A stretch of 64,000 bases of DNA, taken from UHGV virus genome UHGV-1376965; one strand, 5' to 3'. The DNA comes from a virus. A program made the translations under genes and the position numbers. Position 1 is the first letter of the stretch, and the number at the start of each line of letters is the position of its first letter. The notes beneath the pieces are model-generated. The model did no database searches. It was not told the origin of the DNA and saw only the letters and a program-made list of their open reading frames with translations. Positions 39,917 to 54,585 of this stretch are shown here, piece after piece.

Positions 39917-40105
39917 TAAATATATTATTTTTAATCTGAAATAATTGACAACTGACAAGTGACTTCAGTCAGAATCATCACATGCCCGGTACGGATGGAT
40001 CCCTTTTCAAATATTCCATGGACGGCACAGTCTGAGTACCGGGCGCTACCTTCAGTTGTATTGCTAAGCCGCCGCTGGTGGCTTTTCTTTTTTGTAGGGG
40101 GCGCT

Positions 40106-40747
40106 ATGGATAAGAAAATATGCGTTGTTTCAATGAGCGTCGGCAAACCGGCGTCAATGACTGCTGCATGGATCAACAATGAGCTGATAATGGCTGAGCG
40201 GACCAGCTACCCTGAACGCCGCCGCGATATGGAACTCCAGCTGCTGCGCGAATTGCGAGAAAAAGAGGAAAAGGGTTTTATCGTGCTGGTGGAAGAGGAA
40301 AACAGCTTTATTACTGGTCGAGTTGGCCAGCGTGTAAGGTTGCGCGATCCCTTCATGAACGGCAGGCCGGTACTGATTGAAGCAATGCAGATTTACAAGG
40401 AGCTGGAACGCCAGAAAGCGATCAAGTTACCGCGCAAGGAATCCGGCAAATACATCCTCCACCAAAGCATCTTCGATTCCGAACACGATAAAAAAGGCGA
40501 TGAATTTTTCAACATCAACTGGAGTGAAATAACGACAGAGCATGTTCTGACGTTACTATGTTGCTTTGCGACGGAATACAACAACGTTGCCAGCGCCGAC
40601 TACATCAGGGCAATGGCTGGAGAAGTTGAGGCCCGCCAGGAACCATCGTTACTAAGCCCTCTGATTAACATAATTCGCGGAACCCAAACACTGGCGCAAA
40701 AACAAGTACCACGAGGGGAATTGACGGGTAAAGGTAATTATCTCTGA
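40106..40747 (+). CDS. hypothetical protein (P1 mat position)
   Basis: ATG with AGGGGG SD; 213 aa; no recognisable domain. Confidence 0.4.
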   Translation: MDKKICVVSMSVGKPASMTAAWINNELIMAERTSYPERRRDMELQLLRELREKEEKGFIVLVEEENSFITGRVGQRVRLRDPFMNGRPVLIEAMQIYKELERQKAIKLPRKESGKYILHQSIFDSEHDKKGDEFFNINWSEITTEHVLTLLCCFATEYNNVASADYIRAMAGEVEARQEPSLLSPLINIIRGTQTLAQKQVPRGELTGKGNYL

Positions 40748-40786
40748 AAGATGCCCGGCGACAGACCGGGCAAAAGGGCGGAAAGT

Positions 40787-41035
40787 TTAATCAGCATTCA
40801 GGAGCAATGCGTTATCTATGATGATCTGCTCCCATTCTTCGAATGCCCGATCGCGGACGCCCTGGGGAACACTGTTAGTTTTGAAATCGACCACCGTCCG
40901 CCATTTCCCGTCCGGGCGGTACATGCGCAGAGCTTTACTTCCCCCTTCCCTGCGCACCTCAACGTTATGCTTATCAGCAAACTCTTGTAATGCTCGTAGC
41001 GTCCCATGCTTTACTGTGTAGTATCGCTTTTTCAA
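40787..41035 (-). CDS. small protein (P1 lxc position)
   Basis: 82 aa; last gene of the leftward darB-ulx-lxc unit. Confidence 0.4.
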   Translation of the reverse strand: MKKRYYTVKHGTLRALQEFADKHNVEVRREGGSKALRMYRPDGKWRTVVDFKTNSVPQGVRDRAFEEWEQIIIDNALLLNAD

Positions 41036-41472
41036 GTTTTCTCTCCAGCCTGTGCCAAGGCTTCAACTTCCAAATCGTAAGACTCAAACTCATAGTCCTG
41101 GTCGTCAACTTCTTCAGGCACTGGCAGTAAATGCCAGGCTGAGTATATCTGACCATTATCAAAACGCTCCTGGCTGTAGAGCGTCGCGGCTATGAGTGTT
41201 AGCGCCGGGCGGTCATAACGGTAAATTTTGCGAACGTCACGGTCAACGAGACGACCGAAATTACCATAACCGCGCTCCAGTAATAATTTTTTAATTTCCG
41301 GCCAGTATGGGCCATAGCTGCGGTACAGGCGGGGATTTTTCAGTAATCGCCCGCGTAGCCCTGACAGGAAGAAATCAACGTATTCGTCTTCTGTCTTTCC
41401 TAACAATGCCGTACGCAGTACCGCCTCAAGATATGTTTTATTCGGTTTTATTGTATCAGATAGTGTGGCCAT
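41032..41472 (-). CDS. ulx: small protein immediately downstream of darB (P1 ulx position)
   Basis: 146 aa; coupled to darB (34 nt gap) and overlapping the next gene. Confidence 0.45.
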   Translation of the reverse strand: MATLSDTIKPNKTYLEAVLRTALLGKTEDEYVDFFLSGLRGRLLKNPRLYRSYGPYWPEIKKLLLERGYGNFGRLVDRDVRKIYRYDRPALTLIAATLYSQERFDNGQIYSAWHLLPVPEEVDDQDYEFESYDLEVEALAQAGEKT

Positions 41473-41505
41473 ATTATGCGACGCCCGGCGAACCGGGCGC
41501 TCCTG

Positions 41506-44500
41506 TTATGCGTATTGTTGGATGACGGCCAGAACGTCCGCCACGTTGTGTTTTGTCTCGATAATCCACCAGTTACCCGGGAAATCGCTGTTCTTCGCCT
41601 TCGCTGGCAGCCAGCGAGCGCCGAATTTCGCCTTGATTGCGTCTTTCGCACGGAAAAGAACGCCTTTCATGCCTGAGGCTTCCTGAAGCCCAAATACCTC
41701 GCCAGCGGCGAATTTTGGTGCGTACATCATCTTCAGGTCGGCGGTGGATACGCGATAATTCAGACCAAGAGACTGAGCTATGCTGGTGGCATCACCCTGT
41801 ATTGATGATAACTCTTCTTGTTTCTCGTTTCTGGCGGCAATTTCTTCCTCCGTGATGTTGCCAAGGGCCAGGTTTATCCGATCAGCGTCGGCCTGTTTCT
41901 CTTCATCGGTGCGTCCGGCAAGAACCGTGTTAACTCTCTGCAATATCTCCACATGATTCTTGCGCATGCTGAGCAATTCCGGCGTAACCTCGTTAAGATC
42001 CACCAGCCCAAGGATGGCAAGGTCGGAAAACATTGATACCAGGTTGTAGGTCATGCGATAGCTGAGTTGACCATAGGCTGATGGCAACTTCACCGCATCC
42101 ATTTGATAGGCATCCATAAATTTAGAGCCGTCGTTTACGACATCCGCAATTGCCGGTGTGATTTTTCCTGTGGTGGCGGCCTCCCTGATTGCTGTTACCC
42201 ACGATTGAGTCAGCGCGGCGACTGCATGATTCAGATTGGCTTTCCGTTCTGCTGCAATGCGCGCACTTGCTGCGTCCATTGCCTGCTTGATCTCGTCTTT
42301 ATTGCTGTAAATGCCAATGGTGCCAAACTGTGCTGTGGTGATCTCATAATCTGACGCCCGGAACTCATTGGTACCGAAAATGGCATTGGTGACTTCAAGT
42401 TCAGAATCCCCGTTACGAGTAGACCCCTGGCTTGTTTTTTCCGGCATTCTGGCGATCGCATCCGCTATTTTCTCCTGAATTGCTTCAGGGGATAGCGTAT
42501 CTCCGTATGACGCGATTACATCGCCATAATTGGAGCCAAACAATTCAACCAGGAATGTTTCTGCCGAACGGATCTGGCGGTTATTCCCTTCCGACATCAT
42601 ACCAAGCACCCATTTTGCAATTGACGACTTCAGCGCGCCGTCACGGCGATCCGGGTAAACCGCATGCTTCAGTGGGTCCGTATAGGTGCCAACAAAATCA
42701 ATGCTATAGCCTGACTCTGTAGTCTGAACGCCGTATGAGTCAGTGATTTTGATCATGCCGCGCTGCTGGAAACGGTAGAAATCGTCACAGGAAATGATGT
42801 CGTTAATCCCGGCGATGGAGACGCCACCACTGATTTTCTGCATAACAGCATCTTCATCGGGAGTTACATCCACCTGTTTATCCAGCGTCTTCACATCCCA
42901 GTTACCCGATTTGGTGCCTTTGAAGGTAAAGATGATCTCCACGTCTGCGCGCTGGCTGTCGAAGTCCAGCGACTTAATGCGAACGATATCACCGGCACAA
43001 TCATAGTATTGGCCTACACGCCATGAGCGATCGCCGATAACAAGGAACTCATTCGCATGGTTAACCAGATCAGGATCAACATCCAGAATGCCTTTATTTA
43101 TTGCATCCTCCACCAGCGGGCGCAGGCGTTTGATATCCGTCGCGGCCTTCTGAGTACGGTTCAATAATTTCTCATAGCGGGAGATGGCCTGAGAGATATT
43201 AGCCTTGCGCTGAATGGCGCTTTTCAACGACGCGCGATACTGTGCTAACAACATACGGTCTGTGTGATGGACGCTACCCCAGCGGGCTTTCCAGTCTGCG
43301 TTATCAGCTGCTTTGGCCATTACCGCCTGTTTGAATTTGGCGACGTCGGCGGTGGTCTTTTCAAGTTCCGCTTTGCTTCGCTCCAATTCAGCGGTAAGTA
43401 CCTCCACATCCTCACCAGCTGCGTGCTGCGCCTTGATGTAGTTCTGAAGGTCGATAGTAGCCTGTTCTTTCTGGCGAGCGCGTTTCGCAGCTTTCGCCTT
43501 ATCCATTTGAACCTGCATCATTACCAGACGTTCGCCGTCATCCTTCGCGGTATACATCTGCATTTCGATCATGTCATTGGCGTCGGCGTTCTCCATTTCT
43601 GACTTATCTGAACGGAGGATATCGGAGATCCAGCCTGCTTTACGCTTCAGCGTCTTCAGTCGGTATTCATCGAAAGACCCCTTGCCGCAGTAGTAGTGAA
43701 CGCGAACGCTTGCACGGTTGGAGCCAACTCGTGCACCGCGACCGTTACGTTGTGCGATACTGGCTGGTGTCCACGGCAACGTCAGGTGGTGGATATCCGT
43801 CGTTCCTCGATGCAGGTTGATACCCACCTCTGCCTTTTTGTTGCAGATGATGATCGGAGTCCGGCCCTCCTGGAAGTCGGCTGCAATCTTTTCCAGACCG
43901 CCCAACGACATTTCATTTTGCTGCGCGATATAGGCGTCATACAGAGCCATTTGCTCGTTGTATTTCGCTATCTGTGCATCTGTTGGTTCATCCGGTAGCT
44001 CTTTCGGCGGTTTAACCGCTTTCAGTTTCTTACCGGTTTTACCTGCCTCGGCAACCGTCTGAGCATTCAGGATCCCCACCTTTGAAGGTTCAAGGTTTAG
44101 AGCATTGCAGATAATGCGCTTGAGCTTCTGGTGCTGCGTTTTTTCATCGGTGAAGATGATTTGCTTACCTTCCGGGAAAAACTCCTTCAGCGTGGCGATC
44201 AGCTTCGCGTATTTCGGCGTAACGGGGTGAGTTACGGTCTGTTCGTCAATGCCAAACCTGGCCAGGCGATTATTCACTTCCTGCTCAAATGCTTCCGGTA
44301 CCTGCAACTGAATAAACTCGCCCTTATCTATCAGGGAGTATTGCGATTGCTGCGTGATCGAATCATCACTGTCGTCGTCTTCGCTGGTGGCTTGTTTAGG
44401 CAAACTGTCCGCCAGCTGCTGCACCGCATCGGCGTACTCCGGCAGGAAACGATAGGTGATCCTGCGATAGTACAGGTCCATGTCAGTACATACGCGGTCC

Positions 44501-47500
44501 ATATCCCTGATTATTGAGAAGATCGGACGGGCTTTCTCGTGCTCAATCACGCCGTCTTCATTGACCGAGGTCGTTACGCCATTGTTGGCTTTGGCTGCCG
44601 CTTCCGCCTGCTGACGCAATTCTTCATACGCCGCCAGTTGTTCTTCCGTAAGTGGTGCATCCTGCTGGTGTTCGTCCAGTTCCGGGATCTCCACGGTATC
44701 CTTAACGTCTTCCGCCGTTTTAAGCGTTGTCCAGCGATGGAATATGCCGCGCAGCGCATCAAGGTTTTCAAAGCCCACCAGCGCCATTTTTTCTTCAACT
44801 TCACCGCTGATTTTCTGTACCGTTTCCAGCCTGGTCTTGCCGAAGAATTTAACGAAGTCATCAGGACCGTAGATCCCCATCTTCTGCCAGTATTCCTTCG
44901 GCAGCACATGAGAAAGCATGTTGTATGCATCGATCGGGGTGTTAACGACTGGCGTTGCAGTCAGGAGAACCGGTCCGCGCCCACCATTCTTTTTCATCAG
45001 GTACGCGTTTTTAATTGCCATATCCCGCGCCGATTGCGCCACCGCGCTGGTGGGCAGATAGGCCAGTTGTGACGCTTCGCGACCATTTTTATAGCTATTG
45101 CGGTAGTTGTGACCTTCGTCAGCGATCACACTATCGAAGCCCATATCCTCAAAGTACGGATACTTCTCTGCTTTTTCGGTGCCGGTATCTGAATACTCCG
45201 ACAATACCCGGCGACGCGCGGCCTCTTTGCGGTGGGAGTCGGAGTCCATTGCGCTGGCTACGCGCCCGGCGGCAACGAAGTCATAAAGCATATCCTGTGC
45301 ATGCTCATCTACGGTGTCATCACGTAGCGGAATGCGGGCGTATTGTTCTTTGGTAAACACGACTGCACGGTAATTTGAGTGCGGGATCGCGTTCATCCGC
45401 GCCGTGATAGTGGCTTCATCTGCCAGTTTTAGGGCATCGCGCATAACTGGAGTGCCATCAGTACCAAGAACAGGTTTACCGTTCTCATCGAGCACCGGCA
45501 CCTGGCGAATCTGATCGCCATCCATCAGCACATCAAGACCGACGAACAGGTAGTTACTGAATGCCTCTTCACTCAGGAATTCTTTTGCTTCGTAATACCA
45601 GTTTTCCAGCACTGATTTAGGCACTACATACGCAGTACGGGTGGAGCGACCGTTCTCATAGTTGAACGCCTCAAGCGCCAGCGCGGTCGTAGTTTTACCC
45701 AGCCCGGTGCCGAAGCCCAGGATGCCGCGCCCATCTTCGGACAGTCGGCGCACTTCGCTATTCTGGTAATCAAATGGCTGGCGCTTACCGCTTAATCCCT
45801 TCAACCCAAGCGGATCGCCAGAGTGTTCATACGGGATATTGCTATTGAACACATCGTTGTATTTGGCAACCAGTTCATCGTAGCGATCGTGCGTCTTGAT
45901 CCACTTATTGAACTGGTCCTCAAGCAGTGCCATCTGCTCGCGGTAGCCGTTCGCCGTCGCGCTATCTTTGCCACCGATACGCGCACCATTGAGATACTTT
46001 TCCAGCTGTGCCGGGAACCCGGTCGCGTTTTCACCTGATTTACGGTCCCACTCGTAGCGGATCTCGCCTGTTTCTTTATCCTTGCGCTGGACGACACCGT
46101 ATCGGTGCCCGACGAACAGACCATCACCACCGTGATAGGTGTCAGAAACCATTTCGTCGCCTTCCAGCTGCACTGACTGCACATAGCGAAGATCCGGATA
46201 GCCGTTTTCCTGCAAAAATTCCAGAATGACGGAACGGTCGAACCAACGGCTATTGAGCTTAAAGCGGATATTCTCTGCTGGCGTCTTGATGCGCTTCTCT
46301 TCGATCGCTGCCAGCTGATTAAGGACGTTGTTCTTTACTGGACCGTCGGGGAGTGTGGCAAGGAATTCCTGTTTTGGTGCCACTATCTCGTTAATGTCGC
46401 CGCTGGTGGCGCGGGCGAACGGAACAATCCCGCCATACGGTGAAACCGCAATGCCAGGGGTGCTGGCCAATAAATTAAGCAACTCGTCATCACTGGCTGG
46501 CAGTTCGCCGGTAAACGCAAGGCGGAAATCATCGAGCTGGATTGGATCGCGAGTGAGATCACTGTAGAGATAACGCAGGGTGTCCTGATAGCTGGTGGAG
46601 TCATAACTGGCGCTGGAATCATGCGTAACCAGTTTTCCTGTCAGCTCGTCAGAAATAGTGCCATCCAGCTTAATTGCACCACGGAAAGCAAACCAGGCGC
46701 GCGCACCGCTCCCCGATAATTTCGCTATCGGACCGCGACCGGGGTTACCAAAACGGTCAATCTCTGCCTGCAAACGGGATACCAGAGAAAGGCGCTGCTG
46801 TTCGATTTGTTCAGCACTATGCCCGGCGGCCTTCATGTCCTGATATTCAATTAACATCCGGCCAATCATCGCCCCGCGATACAAGCGTTCACGGTATTTT
46901 TCAGGCTGGCTGTTAATCCAGTCCACCAGCTGCACCATATCGTCGCTGATTGATGTGGTGTACTTATCGCGGACATTTGCCATCTGGGTAAATGTCATAC
47001 CGAGACGGCCTTCTGTTGTAGTCAGGTTACGCTGAAGAGCCTCCCAGCTGTCCGCGCCATAACTGGCAACATCAATCTTCAGCTCCTTCCCTGCATCAGA
47101 TTCAATCCAGCGACCACCAGCATATTTTTGCCATACGCCATTAATCAGGCGCATTTCCCCTTCATCAACAACGTCTGCGGTCGGTGACGGTTCAGCCATA
47201 TTGAGCAAAGACCAGTCGATACGACTTTCGAAACGATGAATCAGCTTCGCTTTAAGAGCCTGGTTATCAATCTGCCCGTCGGCACGAACCTCAATACGCC
47301 CCTGGAATCCCTTCTCCTGGGTGCCATGAACAAACCGGCGACCGTCCTTTTCAAACCACTTGCCAGAAATAAACGTTGGCCAAAGCACATTTGCCGATTC
47401 AAGAGTGCTTTCATCCACCAGGGGGATTTTCTCAGCCATCTCTGCCGGATGTTTGCGCATCAGCACCACATCAACGACTGTACTGGTCCCGTTTGCGTCA

Positions 47501-48273
47501 AAAGTACCGGTAGGCAAGCGGTGAGCACCAAGAAATTCAGCTTTCCGTGATAGGCGCAGGCGTAACCGCTTCATGTTTGAACCTGAAACAATGGACGGCG
47601 GCACAATCACGCACATGAATCCGCCTGGCTTTATCTTGTCCAGCATGCGGAGCATGAAGTAAGAACCCATGTCCGTTTCTTCTGCGTAAGGCTTATCGAT
47701 GTTGCGTGTGTTATCACGACCACCGAACGGAACGTTACCCACAACATGGTCGAATGAATCGTTAGGCGTGCTTACAGCCAGCTGTTCGAACGGGGAAATC
47801 TGTACGCTGTCTTCCGGGTGTAACAGCTGGTTTATACGACCGGAAACACTGCTGATCTCAGTCGCAGTCATCACCGTACCAACCGGTTTTGTCTCATTAA
47901 AAACGCCGGTGCCCGCCGATGGTTCCAGAGTGTTACCTACGTCCGCGCCGTAGAGCTTCATGATCTCCCAGACACCTTCAGCGATCGGCTTTGGTGTGTA
48001 ATATTCGGAGACGGACCCGCCAATGCCGCCTTCACCGGTGTACCCAGCCAGGATCTGGCGCTGTTCATCTGTCAGTGTCGCGCCGTCCACCAGCGAATTA
48101 AGCAAATCTATCGCCTTCTGATTCGCCTCCCGGCGCAGTCGGTCATAGCTTTTGCCTTCCACCTTTTCCACGCCGTATTTAATCGGCGCTCGGTGAGATG
48201 TTATTGCCCTAATGTATTTCAATATTTCGCTGACACTTGAACAGCGAAACACCCCAATAGATAGCTTGTTCAT
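41506..48273 (-). CDS. darB: DarB antirestriction protein (N6-adenine methyltransferase plus helicase domains)
   Basis: 2255 aa; MTase-like VVGNVPFGG; helicase Walker A GFGTGLGKTTT and DEGHNYRN; size matches P1 DarB. Confidence 0.9.
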   Translation of the reverse strand: MNKLSIGVFRCSSVSEILKYIRAITSHRAPIKYGVEKVEGKSYDRLRREANQKAIDLLNSLVDGATLTDEQRQILAGYTGEGGIGGSVSEYYTPKPIAEGVWEIMKLYGADVGNTLEPSAGTGVFNETKPVGTVMTATEISSVSGRINQLLHPEDSVQISPFEQLAVSTPNDSFDHVVGNVPFGGRDNTRNIDKPYAEETDMGSYFMLRMLDKIKPGGFMCVIVPPSIVSGSNMKRLRLRLSRKAEFLGAHRLPTGTFDANGTSTVVDVVLMRKHPAEMAEKIPLVDESTLESANVLWPTFISGKWFEKDGRRFVHGTQEKGFQGRIEVRADGQIDNQALKAKLIHRFESRIDWSLLNMAEPSPTADVVDEGEMRLINGVWQKYAGGRWIESDAGKELKIDVASYGADSWEALQRNLTTTEGRLGMTFTQMANVRDKYTTSISDDMVQLVDWINSQPEKYRERLYRGAMIGRMLIEYQDMKAAGHSAEQIEQQRLSLVSRLQAEIDRFGNPGRGPIAKLSGSGARAWFAFRGAIKLDGTISDELTGKLVTHDSSASYDSTSYQDTLRYLYSDLTRDPIQLDDFRLAFTGELPASDDELLNLLASTPGIAVSPYGGIVPFARATSGDINEIVAPKQEFLATLPDGPVKNNVLNQLAAIEEKRIKTPAENIRFKLNSRWFDRSVILEFLQENGYPDLRYVQSVQLEGDEMVSDTYHGGDGLFVGHRYGVVQRKDKETGEIRYEWDRKSGENATGFPAQLEKYLNGARIGGKDSATANGYREQMALLEDQFNKWIKTHDRYDELVAKYNDVFNSNIPYEHSGDPLGLKGLSGKRQPFDYQNSEVRRLSEDGRGILGFGTGLGKTTTALALEAFNYENGRSTRTAYVVPKSVLENWYYEAKEFLSEEAFSNYLFVGLDVLMDGDQIRQVPVLDENGKPVLGTDGTPVMRDALKLADEATITARMNAIPHSNYRAVVFTKEQYARIPLRDDTVDEHAQDMLYDFVAAGRVASAMDSDSHRKEAARRRVLSEYSDTGTEKAEKYPYFEDMGFDSVIADEGHNYRNSYKNGREASQLAYLPTSAVAQSARDMAIKNAYLMKKNGGRGPVLLTATPVVNTPIDAYNMLSHVLPKEYWQKMGIYGPDDFVKFFGKTRLETVQKISGEVEEKMALVGFENLDALRGIFHRWTTLKTAEDVKDTVEIPELDEHQQDAPLTEEQLAAYEELRQQAEAAAKANNGVTTSVNEDGVIEHEKARPIFSIIRDMDRVCTDMDLYYRRITYRFLPEYADAVQQLADSLPKQATSEDDDSDDSITQQSQYSLIDKGEFIQLQVPEAFEQEVNNRLARFGIDEQTVTHPVTPKYAKLIATLKEFFPEGKQIIFTDEKTQHQKLKRIICNALNLEPSKVGILNAQTVAEAGKTGKKLKAVKPPKELPDEPTDAQIAKYNEQMALYDAYIAQQNEMSLGGLEKIAADFQEGRTPIIICNKKAEVGINLHRGTTDIHHLTLPWTPASIAQRNGRGARVGSNRASVRVHYYCGKGSFDEYRLKTLKRKAGWISDILRSDKSEMENADANDMIEMQMYTAKDDGERLVMMQVQMDKAKAAKRARQKEQATIDLQNYIKAQHAAGEDVEVLTAELERSKAELEKTTADVAKFKQAVMAKAADNADWKARWGSVHHTDRMLLAQYRASLKSAIQRKANISQAISRYEKLLNRTQKAATDIKRLRPLVEDAINKGILDVDPDLVNHANEFLVIGDRSWRVGQYYDCAGDIVRIKSLDFDSQRADVEIIFTFKGTKSGNWDVKTLDKQVDVTPDEDAVMQKISGGVSIAGINDIISCDDFYRFQQRGMIKITDSYGVQTTESGYSIDFVGTYTDPLKHAVYPDRRDGALKSSIAKWVLGMMSEGNNRQIRSAETFLVELFGSNYGDVIASYGDTLSPEAIQEKIADAIARMPEKTSQGSTRNGDSELEVTNAIFGTNEFRASDYEITTAQFGTIGIYSNKDEIKQAMDAASARIAAERKANLNHAVAALTQSWVTAIREAATTGKITPAIADVVNDGSKFMDAYQMDAVKLPSAYGQLSYRMTYNLVSMFSDLAILGLVDLNEVTPELLSMRKNHVEILQRVNTVLAGRTDEEKQADADRINLALGNITEEEIAARNEKQEELSSIQGDATSIAQSLGLNYRVSTADLKMMYAPKFAAGEVFGLQEASGMKGVLFRAKDAIKAKFGARWLPAKAKNSDFPGNWWIIETKHNVADVLAVIQQYA

Positions 48274-52577: not shown

Positions 52578-52774
52578 ATGTGTAAAAAACGACTGAAAGA
52601 AAAGCGGTGGTCCAAACGCCAACAAAAGCACGAACTCGCTAAAAAACGCCAAAGTTGGCAATGGCACGCGCTTTTCACGAAAAGAACACCCCGAGATATT
52701 GCTTTCGCTGGTGGGAAAACATTCCTGACCCACCTGAAGGCGCAATACATCAGGTTTTAAGCAGAGGAAAGACT

Positions 52775-53452
52775 ATGAATAACATGACAACGAAAGAGCT
52801 TTTGACGGCACTTCCAAAATACAAAAGCCATAAAACAGTTCGCGCCTCAAAAATCAAAGATATCGAAATTATCGCCCTAATGGATGTGGTCCTTTTTTGC
52901 AACATCGAAGTCGTTGAGCCAGAAGGGGTAAAAGTCCATGTTGATAAAATATTTTTGCAAAAACACCGACCAGAAATTGGCGGATATCTGGTCGCTTATG
53001 AGGACGGATCTCTGTCCTATTCACCAGAAAAAACATTTGAAGAAGGCTTTAGTCGGACTAACGACTTCTTCGAAAATGGGGTATCGCTCAGCATTGAAGG
53101 TCACAATGGGGTGACATTCATTACAGCCAGGGACGTAACTATTTCTGCTGGCGGTATCGCTACTCTACAAGAAGAAATCGACCTTGAAGCAGCCGACTTT
53201 TCTGACGCGCTGATGTGGCTGAAGGATGGCAAGAAAGTTGCCCGACGCGGGTGGAACGGCGAAAACCAATTCTGCTGGCTGGTTCCTGAAGGACAGTACC
53301 CGGCACGAATGGAAGCCATTAAGGGATATTTCCCCGGCGACCTCGTTCCGTATGGTGCTTATTTCGCCTTAAAAAATGCACAAGGTGTAGTTGTTCCGTG
53401 GGTTCCTTCTGTAGGCGACTTACTGGCATGTGACTGGTTTGTAGTGGAGTGA
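52775..53452 (+). CDS. hypothetical protein with conserved Trp-rich C-terminal module
   Basis: Start ATG with GAGGAA SD; C-terminal ALMWLKDGKKVARRGWNG ... WVPSVGDLLACDWFVVE. Confidence 0.4.
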   Translation: MNNMTTKELLTALPKYKSHKTVRASKIKDIEIIALMDVVLFCNIEVVEPEGVKVHVDKIFLQKHRPEIGGYLVAYEDGSLSYSPEKTFEEGFSRTNDFFENGVSLSIEGHNGVTFITARDVTISAGGIATLQEEIDLEAADFSDALMWLKDGKKVARRGWNGENQFCWLVPEGQYPARMEAIKGYFPGDLVPYGAYFALKNAQGVVVPWVPSVGDLLACDWFVVE

Positions 53453-53458
53453 TTTAAC

Positions 53459-54247
53459 GTGGAAAATACTAAAGCAATTCAATACCGCCTGCGTAATGGT
53501 CAGAGTGTCGAAGTGACCATCAATCATGATGGTGTGCCTGGCGAAAAGGTTTCGATCTCTGCTCTGGCTATCGAAAAAACCATCATGTGCCACCTTGGCT
53601 TTACTGAAGAAGTGAGCAAAAAGCATGGTGTAGCAATCTGGAGCGCAATGGATACTGGTATGCGCAGATTCATTACTGCTCGTACCCCAGGGATGACCAT
53701 GATGGACCTCATGCAGATTGCGCCGCTGTTTGAATGTGAGCCTTTAGATGTATTCAGCAATCCAGCTATCTGCCAGCAGCTATATGGTGAGATGAAACTC
53801 GCGGTTACCCCCATTGTGCTGCATGAAGGATCGCTTGCTGGCGTATGGAAAGTAGAGAGAATTTCAAGCTACATGCCCTTCCACTTCCATGTCAACGGCA
53901 TAATCACTGGTGAAAACCAACCTGTTTCCGTTACAAAGTCAGACCTCAAGCGCGCAATTCTTGAAGCAAGTTGTCGAGTTATCGGCCTGGGCAAACAGTC
54001 TTATGTTTCCTTCCCGGCTGGCCCTGAAGGCCCGGCAGAAATTCTGATTATGGATGCCGATCTGCTCTGGCAAATACAGTTTCTGATTGGCAAAAGCATC
54101 ATCCGCGCTGAAGAACTCGATCAGTACATTACCTGCACGATGACGGATGAAGTCAAAAGTGTGGCTATAGCCAATGCCCGGAACCTATGTCGTGCTGCAT
54201 TAACAGAACTGCAAGAAAACACCACGGAAGAAGTGGAAAGCGATTAA
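53459..54247 (+). CDS. hypothetical protein
   Basis: 262 aa; GTG start with GGAG SD. Confidence 0.4.
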   Translation: MENTKAIQYRLRNGQSVEVTINHDGVPGEKVSISALAIEKTIMCHLGFTEEVSKKHGVAIWSAMDTGMRRFITARTPGMTMMDLMQIAPLFECEPLDVFSNPAICQQLYGEMKLAVTPIVLHEGSLAGVWKVERISSYMPFHFHVNGIITGENQPVSVTKSDLKRAILEASCRVIGLGKQSYVSFPAGPEGPAEILIMDADLLWQIQFLIGKSIIRAEELDQYITCTMTDEVKSVAIANARNLCRAALTELQENTTEEVESD

Positions 54248-54276: not shown

Positions 54277-54585
54277 TCAATATACGATCTGGTCTACATG
54301 ATCACCAAAATCATCGTCGTCGTCCTCATCGCCACCATCTACTGCTGGCCAATCAACAAACCAGCCAGCGTAAAGATGCAGCGTTCGGAGAACATCACTT
54401 GCGGGGGCATCAAGGGTGTTAACGAATCCCATATAGCTATTGGGATTTGCTCCAGCTATGGCTTCAGCGATCATGTCCTCGGTAATGTCACCGGAGATAA
54501 TGCTTAAACGCCCGGAAACTTCTTCATTATCATCAAATTCGATAATGGCATCTCCGCCTAATGGCGCTGCGATTTTAATCTGCAT
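54277..54585 (-). CDS. small acidic protein at the distal end of the dar operon
   Basis: 102 aa, poly-Asp C-terminal tract; overlaps ddrB stop. Confidence 0.4.
   Translation of the reverse strand: MQIKIAAPLGGDAIIEFDDNEEVSGRLSIISGDITEDMIAEAIAGANPNSYMGFVNTLDAPASDVLRTLHLYAGWFVDWPAVDGGDEDDDDDFGDHVDQIVY

Follow-up and report, generated by a model that had tools for sequence, protein, structure and literature searches.

The 39 bp at positions 40748-40786 of the window, the whole 64-kb stretch of DNA analysed here, are highly likely to represent the unoccupied allele of a known cargo slot of P1-like phage-plasmids (RD-1, or region 1), reduced to a spacer that holds only a hairpin and forming part of a locus at which cassettes would be exchanged by homologous recombination. 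The slot itself is published. RD-1 was delimited as positions 3,469-9,749 of P1, the res-mod region (Venturini et al. 2019, PMC6906374), the same hot spot appears under this name in a later study (Lai & Cooper 2024, PMC10865808), and res-mod constitutes variable region 1 among 54 P1-like elements (PMC9603915). The position, the synteny cre-c8-ref-mat / lxc-ulx-darB and the hot-spot concept are identical in these studies and here; while the published RD-1 elements carry other ORFs in place of res-mod, nothing replaces res-mod in the window. The empty mat-lxc slot is, as such, already known, a rare but well-sampled allele of a published variable (defence) slot. To the RD-1 literature are added frequencies, boundary positions and the hairpin, with the concept unchanged.

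Anatomy of the mat-lxc locus

The element is a P1-like (Punavirus, IncY-type) phage-plasmid, the window being collinear with P1 from lox/cre through the dar operon (blastn) and 99.6% identical across 7 kb to the IncY plasmid pA17EC0026-3 (CP088832.1). Convergent mat and lxc-ulx-darB flank the slot with the synteny and collinearity of P1, and the locus is composed of the following features:

39959-40747, + strand: mat (maturation control), longest ORF, 262 aa, 96% identity to P1 Mat
40615-40747, + strand: 3' end of mat, graded left edge of the variable slot, from homology end points and C-terminal alleles
40748-40786, no strand: spacer between the convergent stop codons, the unoccupied RD-1, 39 bp, from the ORF list and the sequence
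40753-40771, no strand: hairpin GCCCGG-CGACAGA-CCGGGC, from position and folding
40787-41035, - strand: lxc (bof), modulator of C1 repressor action, 82-aa ORF, 82/82 residues identical to P1 Lxc (BLASTP)
41032-41472, - strand: ulx (Ulx-like anti-restriction, part of the Dar system), 146-aa ORF, from synteny, blastn to P1 9743-21740 and the annotation of P1 and relatives
41483-41498, no strand: second hairpin GCCCGG-CGAA-CCGGGC in the darB/ulx interval, kept in all relatives examined
41506-48273, - strand: darB (methyltransferase-helicase, defence against restriction), 2255-aa ORF, 2231/2255 residues (99%) identical to P1 DarB (BLASTP)

The ends of the mat-position ORF at 40747 and of the convergent lxc-position ORF at 40787, on which a sequence-only reading of this DNA had based a gap of about 40 bp, agree with the ORF list, which gives a gap of exactly 39 bp. 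Mat shares 241/250 amino acids with the protein of P1 (NC_005856; BLASTP), and the divergence is located mostly in the last ~60 residues, with 6/9 substitutions within the last 15. The mat start annotated in P1 corresponds to position ~39995 of the window, the PGAP version in relatives comprises 213 aa, and the counterpart in CP088832.1 and in phage RCS47 is annotated as maturation control protein.

In P1 (NC_005856), mat (2716-3468) is followed by res (3544-6456, - strand), mod and lxc (9750-9998, - strand), and the order mat, res, mod, lxc is the same in P7, so that the placement of res-mod between mat and lxc in P1 is correct. The EcoP1I and EcoP7I type III restriction-modification (R-M) systems occupy in P1 and P7 the same genomic slot as this spacer, but the window is without either of their Res and Mod genes. 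IS1 and isaA, which had been assigned to the same slot, lie elsewhere in P1, with isaA-IS1-isaB at 21,569-24,132 (~21.5 kb), after ssb; the insertion sequence in the slot is an IS5, which interrupts mod of the P1 reference at 7652-8846 and corresponds to the laboratory allele mod749::IS5.

With the P7 proteins as queries, tblastn detected neither a Res nor a Mod homologue in the 64-kb window (best E=3.6 for Res and E=0.95 for Mod). The closest complete relative, CP088832.1 (97 kb), likewise gave no Res/Mod match better than E=0.95 (tblastn), and for the ~33 kb of the element beyond the window the absence of R-M rests on this one close relative. The only methyltransferases found in the window are Dmt (2383-4401, with orphan-MTase matches) and DarB. 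No recognised defence system was detected by PADLOC in the window among the ~30 of ~65 ORFs scanned; weak matches were to an SspD/PAPS-reductase-like ORF and to LmuB (E~1e-4), marginal matches being at E~1e-4 or weaker.

Occupants of the slot and their frequency

Among the sampled relatives, elements otherwise >95% identical, the mat-lxc slot shows at least 10 alternative contents:

Type III R-M, two variants: P1, P7, CP095126, CP027443
RelA/SpoT (CapRel toxSAS), variant a: CP010173
RelA/SpoT (CapRel toxSAS), variant b: CP065023, phage SJ46
SIR2, two variants: CP069885, CP024817
DUF2971: AP025210
YaaC-family gene plus hypothetical gene: CP047005, CP057430
EAL plus AraC-type HTH, with IS3: AP028839
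Hypothetical gene plus Icd plus KilAC antirepressor (Icd/Ant; ANT match): CP099043
133-aa hypothetical protein: E. albertii CP099881

By PADLOC and Pfam, these occupants include REase_III/MTase_III, RelA/SpoT as PDC-S33 (CapRel-like), SIR2 as PDC-S25/ThsA-like and DUF2971 as PDC-S31, while the EAL, AraC-HTH, YaaC and 133-aa cargoes had no PADLOC match. In phage SJ46, it is the phage's own RelA/SpoT gene that occupies the mat-lxc slot, and CapRelSJ46 is a fused toxin-antitoxin with experimentally demonstrated anti-phage activity (PMC9712102). As the occupants in relatives include known or candidate defence families and the SJ46 CapRel is situated in the slot, the slot behaves as a defence hot spot. 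In relatives, RD-1 is occupied by any of numerous alternative cassettes of one to three genes, the majority being known or candidate anti-phage defences (type III R-M, CapRel, SIR2, DUF2971/PDC-S31). Hot spots for defence genes in temperate phages and satellites (for example P2/P4; CapRelSJ46, PMC9712102) likewise have a fixed position, conserved neighbours and interchangeable anti-phage genes; unlike those, the slot is empty in the window, which leaves it without an assignable defence function. For this element, the mat-lxc locus should confer no CapRel- or SIR2-type phage defence, and a lysogen would be expected to show no EcoP1I-type restriction or modification. The practical value is small, in that an annotator learns that the element has nothing in its mat-lxc cargo slot.

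According to a recent survey, no more than 28% of the P1-like elements of E. coli carry complete defence systems, mainly type III RM, dGTPase, PrrC and CapRel (bioRxiv 10.1101/2025.09.12.675607). A relative of the YaaC class, NZ_CP047005.1, carries an annotated anti-phage dGTPase at 8299-9654, just after ssb (RD-2); defence cargo of P1-like elements is therefore not limited to the mat-lxc slot.

The frequency of the empty state was assessed with a 631-bp query across the junction, a contiguous match being counted as empty. Among PLSDB plasmids 701 records match, 31 of them contiguously (4.4%); in complete E. coli genomes the locus is present in 701/5,426 and contiguous in 35; and among 19 matching phage records only RCS47 is contiguous (two records, one genome). 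The window is an uncommon empty version of the locus, found in ~5% of P1-like phage-plasmids. Its spacer length of 39 bp recurs in CP088832.1, phage RCS47, pO111_2 and CP089136, and a 39-nt hairpin-and-flank segment, taken without the first and last base of the spacer, is unchanged in the first three of these and has 2 substitutions in CP089136.

The elements most similar in this respect are Escherichia phage RCS47 (FO818745.1) and the plasmids pO111_2 and pA17EC0026-3, which share the 39-bp mat-lxc gap with an identical hairpin and flank. Identity to the window is 99.2-99.6% along 7 kb for RCS47 and pA17EC0026-3; for pO111_2 and RCS47, the 631-bp query across the junction gave 99.4%. Elsewhere, all three are unlike the window, with for example the Tad2-like and TnpB inserts (see below) missing from CP088832.1. 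That the cargo has merely disappeared through a collapsed or mis-joined assembly, or that the empty state is an artefact of sampling, is practically inconceivable, as the same contiguous junction is present in dozens of independent complete plasmids and in RCS47 at 97-99% identity.

Class junctions were counted in PLSDB with 601-nt queries (300 nt of cargo and 300 nt of lxc) at >=80% coverage, by which close variants may merge or split, and amount to 140 for AraC-HTH, 87 for DUF2971, 83 for YaaC, 67 for res-mod, 59 for SIR2-b and 52 for CapRel-a. Together with the 31 empty junctions, these six classes account for 519 of ~700 records, the remainder including SIR2-a, CapRel-b, Icd/Ant and others; the shares of SIR2-a, CapRel-b and Icd/Ant were estimated from an evenly spaced sample (5, 2 and 1 of 60 rows, respectively). 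Of the earlier statement that no type III R-M module is present at the canonical slot of this element, the absence holds, with no Res or Mod match, but not the word canonical, with res-mod in ~67 of ~700 PLSDB relatives: res-mod is itself a minority occupant (~10%), and AraC-HTH, DUF2971 and YaaC are commoner. The survey provides a useful summary of the defence hot spot, with res-mod in the minority, at least 10 cassette types, and edges at the 3' end of mat and the lxc stop.

Slot boundaries, hairpin and proposed cassette exchange

On the left side, the other classes cease to be homologous to the window at 40615, 40629, 40702, 40732, 40741 or 40743, all within the 3' end of mat and spread over ~130 bp. 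On the right side, the boundary is sharp, with homology ends at 40766-40791, a few bases from the lxc stop codon. Towards its end mat becomes divergent, 90-100% nucleotide identity to the window giving way to 43-80% in the final 60 nt, a range that excludes the EAL+HTH class, in which an indel breaks the ungapped comparison, while in lxc no class drops below 77% in the first bin of 30 nt or below 90% in any later bin up to 240 nt (lxc ends at ~250 nt). In most cargo classes the final 15-45 residues of Mat form an allele peculiar to the class, in which length and the motif VPxGxLTGKxN(Y/I)(F/L) are conserved; the P1-type C-terminal allele is common to three cargoes, res-mod, res-mod-v2 and Icd/Ant.

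The sequence-only reading had described the empty junction as an insertion hot spot and proposed a search for a conserved core across elements with different cargo. Variation of cargo at the junction is borne out by the at least 10 occupants; the signature of an insertion site is not. When the two cargo ends were aligned with the empty junction for 10 loci that cover 8 distinct cargo types, no conserved core or att site common to all emerged, and the left boundaries are scattered in mat. Candidate target-site duplications were dismissed as well, as comparison of 120 nt per cargo end showed no direct repeats >8 nt around the cargo, only chance words of 7-8 nt, inconsistent in sequence, or none. 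No recombinase is annotated in the cassettes, except for the IS3 copy inside the EAL+IS3+HTH cargo.

A dedicated insertion site, with an att-like core that takes in varied cargoes, could account for many cargoes being situated at exactly one intergenic position and for a right edge that is always a few bases from the lxc stop. Selection against disruption of mat or lxc alone, though, would give boundaries at the stop codons, no spacer sequence is common to all classes, as only Icd/Ant retains the right half, and the ~130-bp range of left boundaries within mat, the absence of direct repeats or target duplications and, with the exception of IS3, of an annotated integrase or transposase in the cassettes leave this explanation very improbable. 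The graded left and sharp right boundaries, the Mat alleles and the lack of core, repeats and recombinase fit homologous recombination in conserved flanks rather than insertion at a dedicated core.

Judged from the boundary patterns at ~20 sampled loci, exchange of cassettes via homologous recombination in the flanks is the most likely mechanism. Cassettes would be swapped, gained or lost during co-residence or co-infection, with the body of mat as the recombining flank on the left and lxc-ulx-darB on the right, and with selection presumably keeping mat and lxc intact through the exchange. 

The spacer consists of AAGAT, the 19-nt hairpin GCCCGG-CGACAGA-CCGGGC at 40753-40771 and AAAAGGGCGGAAAGT. 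Folding gives the hairpin a minimum free energy of -16.8 kcal/mol when read on the lxc strand, against -17.4 kcal/mol on that of mat, with z-scores between about -2.1 and -2.4. As folded, it presents a GC-rich stem of 7-8 bp, as in a Rho-independent terminator. The stem is followed 3' by AUCUUUC on the lxc (-) strand and AAAAGGG on the mat strand; the tracts examined for uridines, AUCUUUCA on the lxc strand (4 U of 8) and AAAAGGGC on the mat strand, do not include a canonical U-tract. A scan for strict consensus terminators did not call the spacer hairpin, the fold of which is stable but the U-tract weak. Rather than a canonical intrinsic terminator, the hairpin is probably just a weak one for lxc, or else marks the transcript ends of both convergent genes; in the cell it would most likely act as a weak stop for lxc transcription and possibly as a barrier to read-through from mat.

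The same stem, with other loops, is found beside the lxc stop codon of three cargo classes, Icd/Ant, CapRel-a and YaaC, and it equals the stem of the darB/ulx hairpin (41483-41498; -17.1 kcal/mol), present in every relative examined. The recurring stem may reflect shared ancestry or may simply be a terminator stem of a common kind. CP099043.1 carries two icd-antirepressor modules, at 3458-4794 and 10649-11979, one in the pacB/c1 interval and one in the mat-lxc slot, and both end in the hairpin GCCCGG-TTGATG-CCGGGC. In its Icd/Ant cargo, the hairpin and the sequence upstream of it are a copy of the icd-ant module from the pacB/c1 interval, and beyond the stem follows empty-type spacer. This joint within the hairpin suggests that the Icd/Ant cassette entered an empty-type site.

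The reverse polarity, in which the empty junction is the scar of a deletion and an ancestral cargo (SIR2 or Icd/Ant, for example) was excised, perhaps via terminator-like hairpins of which one was left, is the foremost alternative, although an unlikely one. It draws on the C-terminal Mat allele that goes with the empty class (…TLAQKQVPRGELTGKGNYL), which is nearest to the SIR2 and CapRel-b alleles, on the identical hairpin stem in several cassettes, and on the homology of the 39-bp spacer, from its right two-thirds to nearly its whole length, to the last ~42 bp of the CP099043 Icd/Ant cargo (...AAGAATGCCCGG-loop-CCGGGCAAAAGGGCGGGAAGTTTA). The CP099043 joint is nevertheless more simply read as an insertion into an empty-type site than as a deletion from one, and the empty allele forms an established lineage, marked by a Mat allele of its own and a nearly invariant spacer and recovered from 31 plasmids, 35 genomes and RCS47 on several continents and in several hosts. 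An unoccupied allele of RD-1 within a system of homologous cassette exchange is retained as the preferred explanation. Going beyond it, the combined proposition that the cargo-linked Mat C-terminal alleles signify a functional coupling of Mat with the adjoining cassette, and not mere hitch-hiking, and that the lxc-side hairpin is a recombination joint that captures cassettes seems improbable.

Counter-defence genes and other variable regions

EcoP1I is a defence and addiction function given to the host by the prophage, while Dar and Dmt are counter-defences by which the phage guards its own DNA on entering a new cell. As R-M and Dar/Dmt serve different functions, losing one creates no reliance on the other. 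The view that the element relies on Dar/Dmt antirestriction alone thus mixed up defence and anti-defence, and it overlooked a Tad2-like gene. The counter-defence set kept in the window comprises darB/ulx, darA, hdf, ddrA and ddrB (collinear with P1 24246-31836), dmt and the Tad2-like ORF:

52655-53452, + strand: Tad2-like (Thoeris anti-defence 2) ORF, 265 aa, Pfam domain at aa 181-264 (E=2.3e-22)

The Tad2-like ORF is found within a 685-bp segment after ssb (52778-53463), which is missing from P1 and CP088832.1. By this location, the ORF belongs to RD-2, the isaA area, which is the second variable region known. A Tad2-like feature has been reported for 56% of P1-like elements (bioRxiv 10.1101/2025.09.12.675607).

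Further differences are distributed over the window. A 1.3-kb insertion at 57579-58913, between ddrB (54575-57562, - strand) and ddrA (58910-59275, - strand), is missing from P1 and CP088832.1 and codes, in the orientation opposed to that of the dar operon, for a 402-aa TnpB (OrfB_IS605 and Cas12f1-like TNB domain); by polarity, the insertion may lower ddrB expression. Positions 21221-26540 are mosaic with respect to CP088832.1, with several segments of no or low (89%) identity, and code for a PAPS-reductase/SspD-like protein (21369-22247), two Ead/Ea22-like proteins and a DUF551 protein; this stretch looks like another variable region of the backbone. Finally, the cin-like invertase region at 63370-63897 has ~70% identity to P1 cin and the opposite orientation, and the tail-fibre/C-segment region is therefore of another type than in P1.
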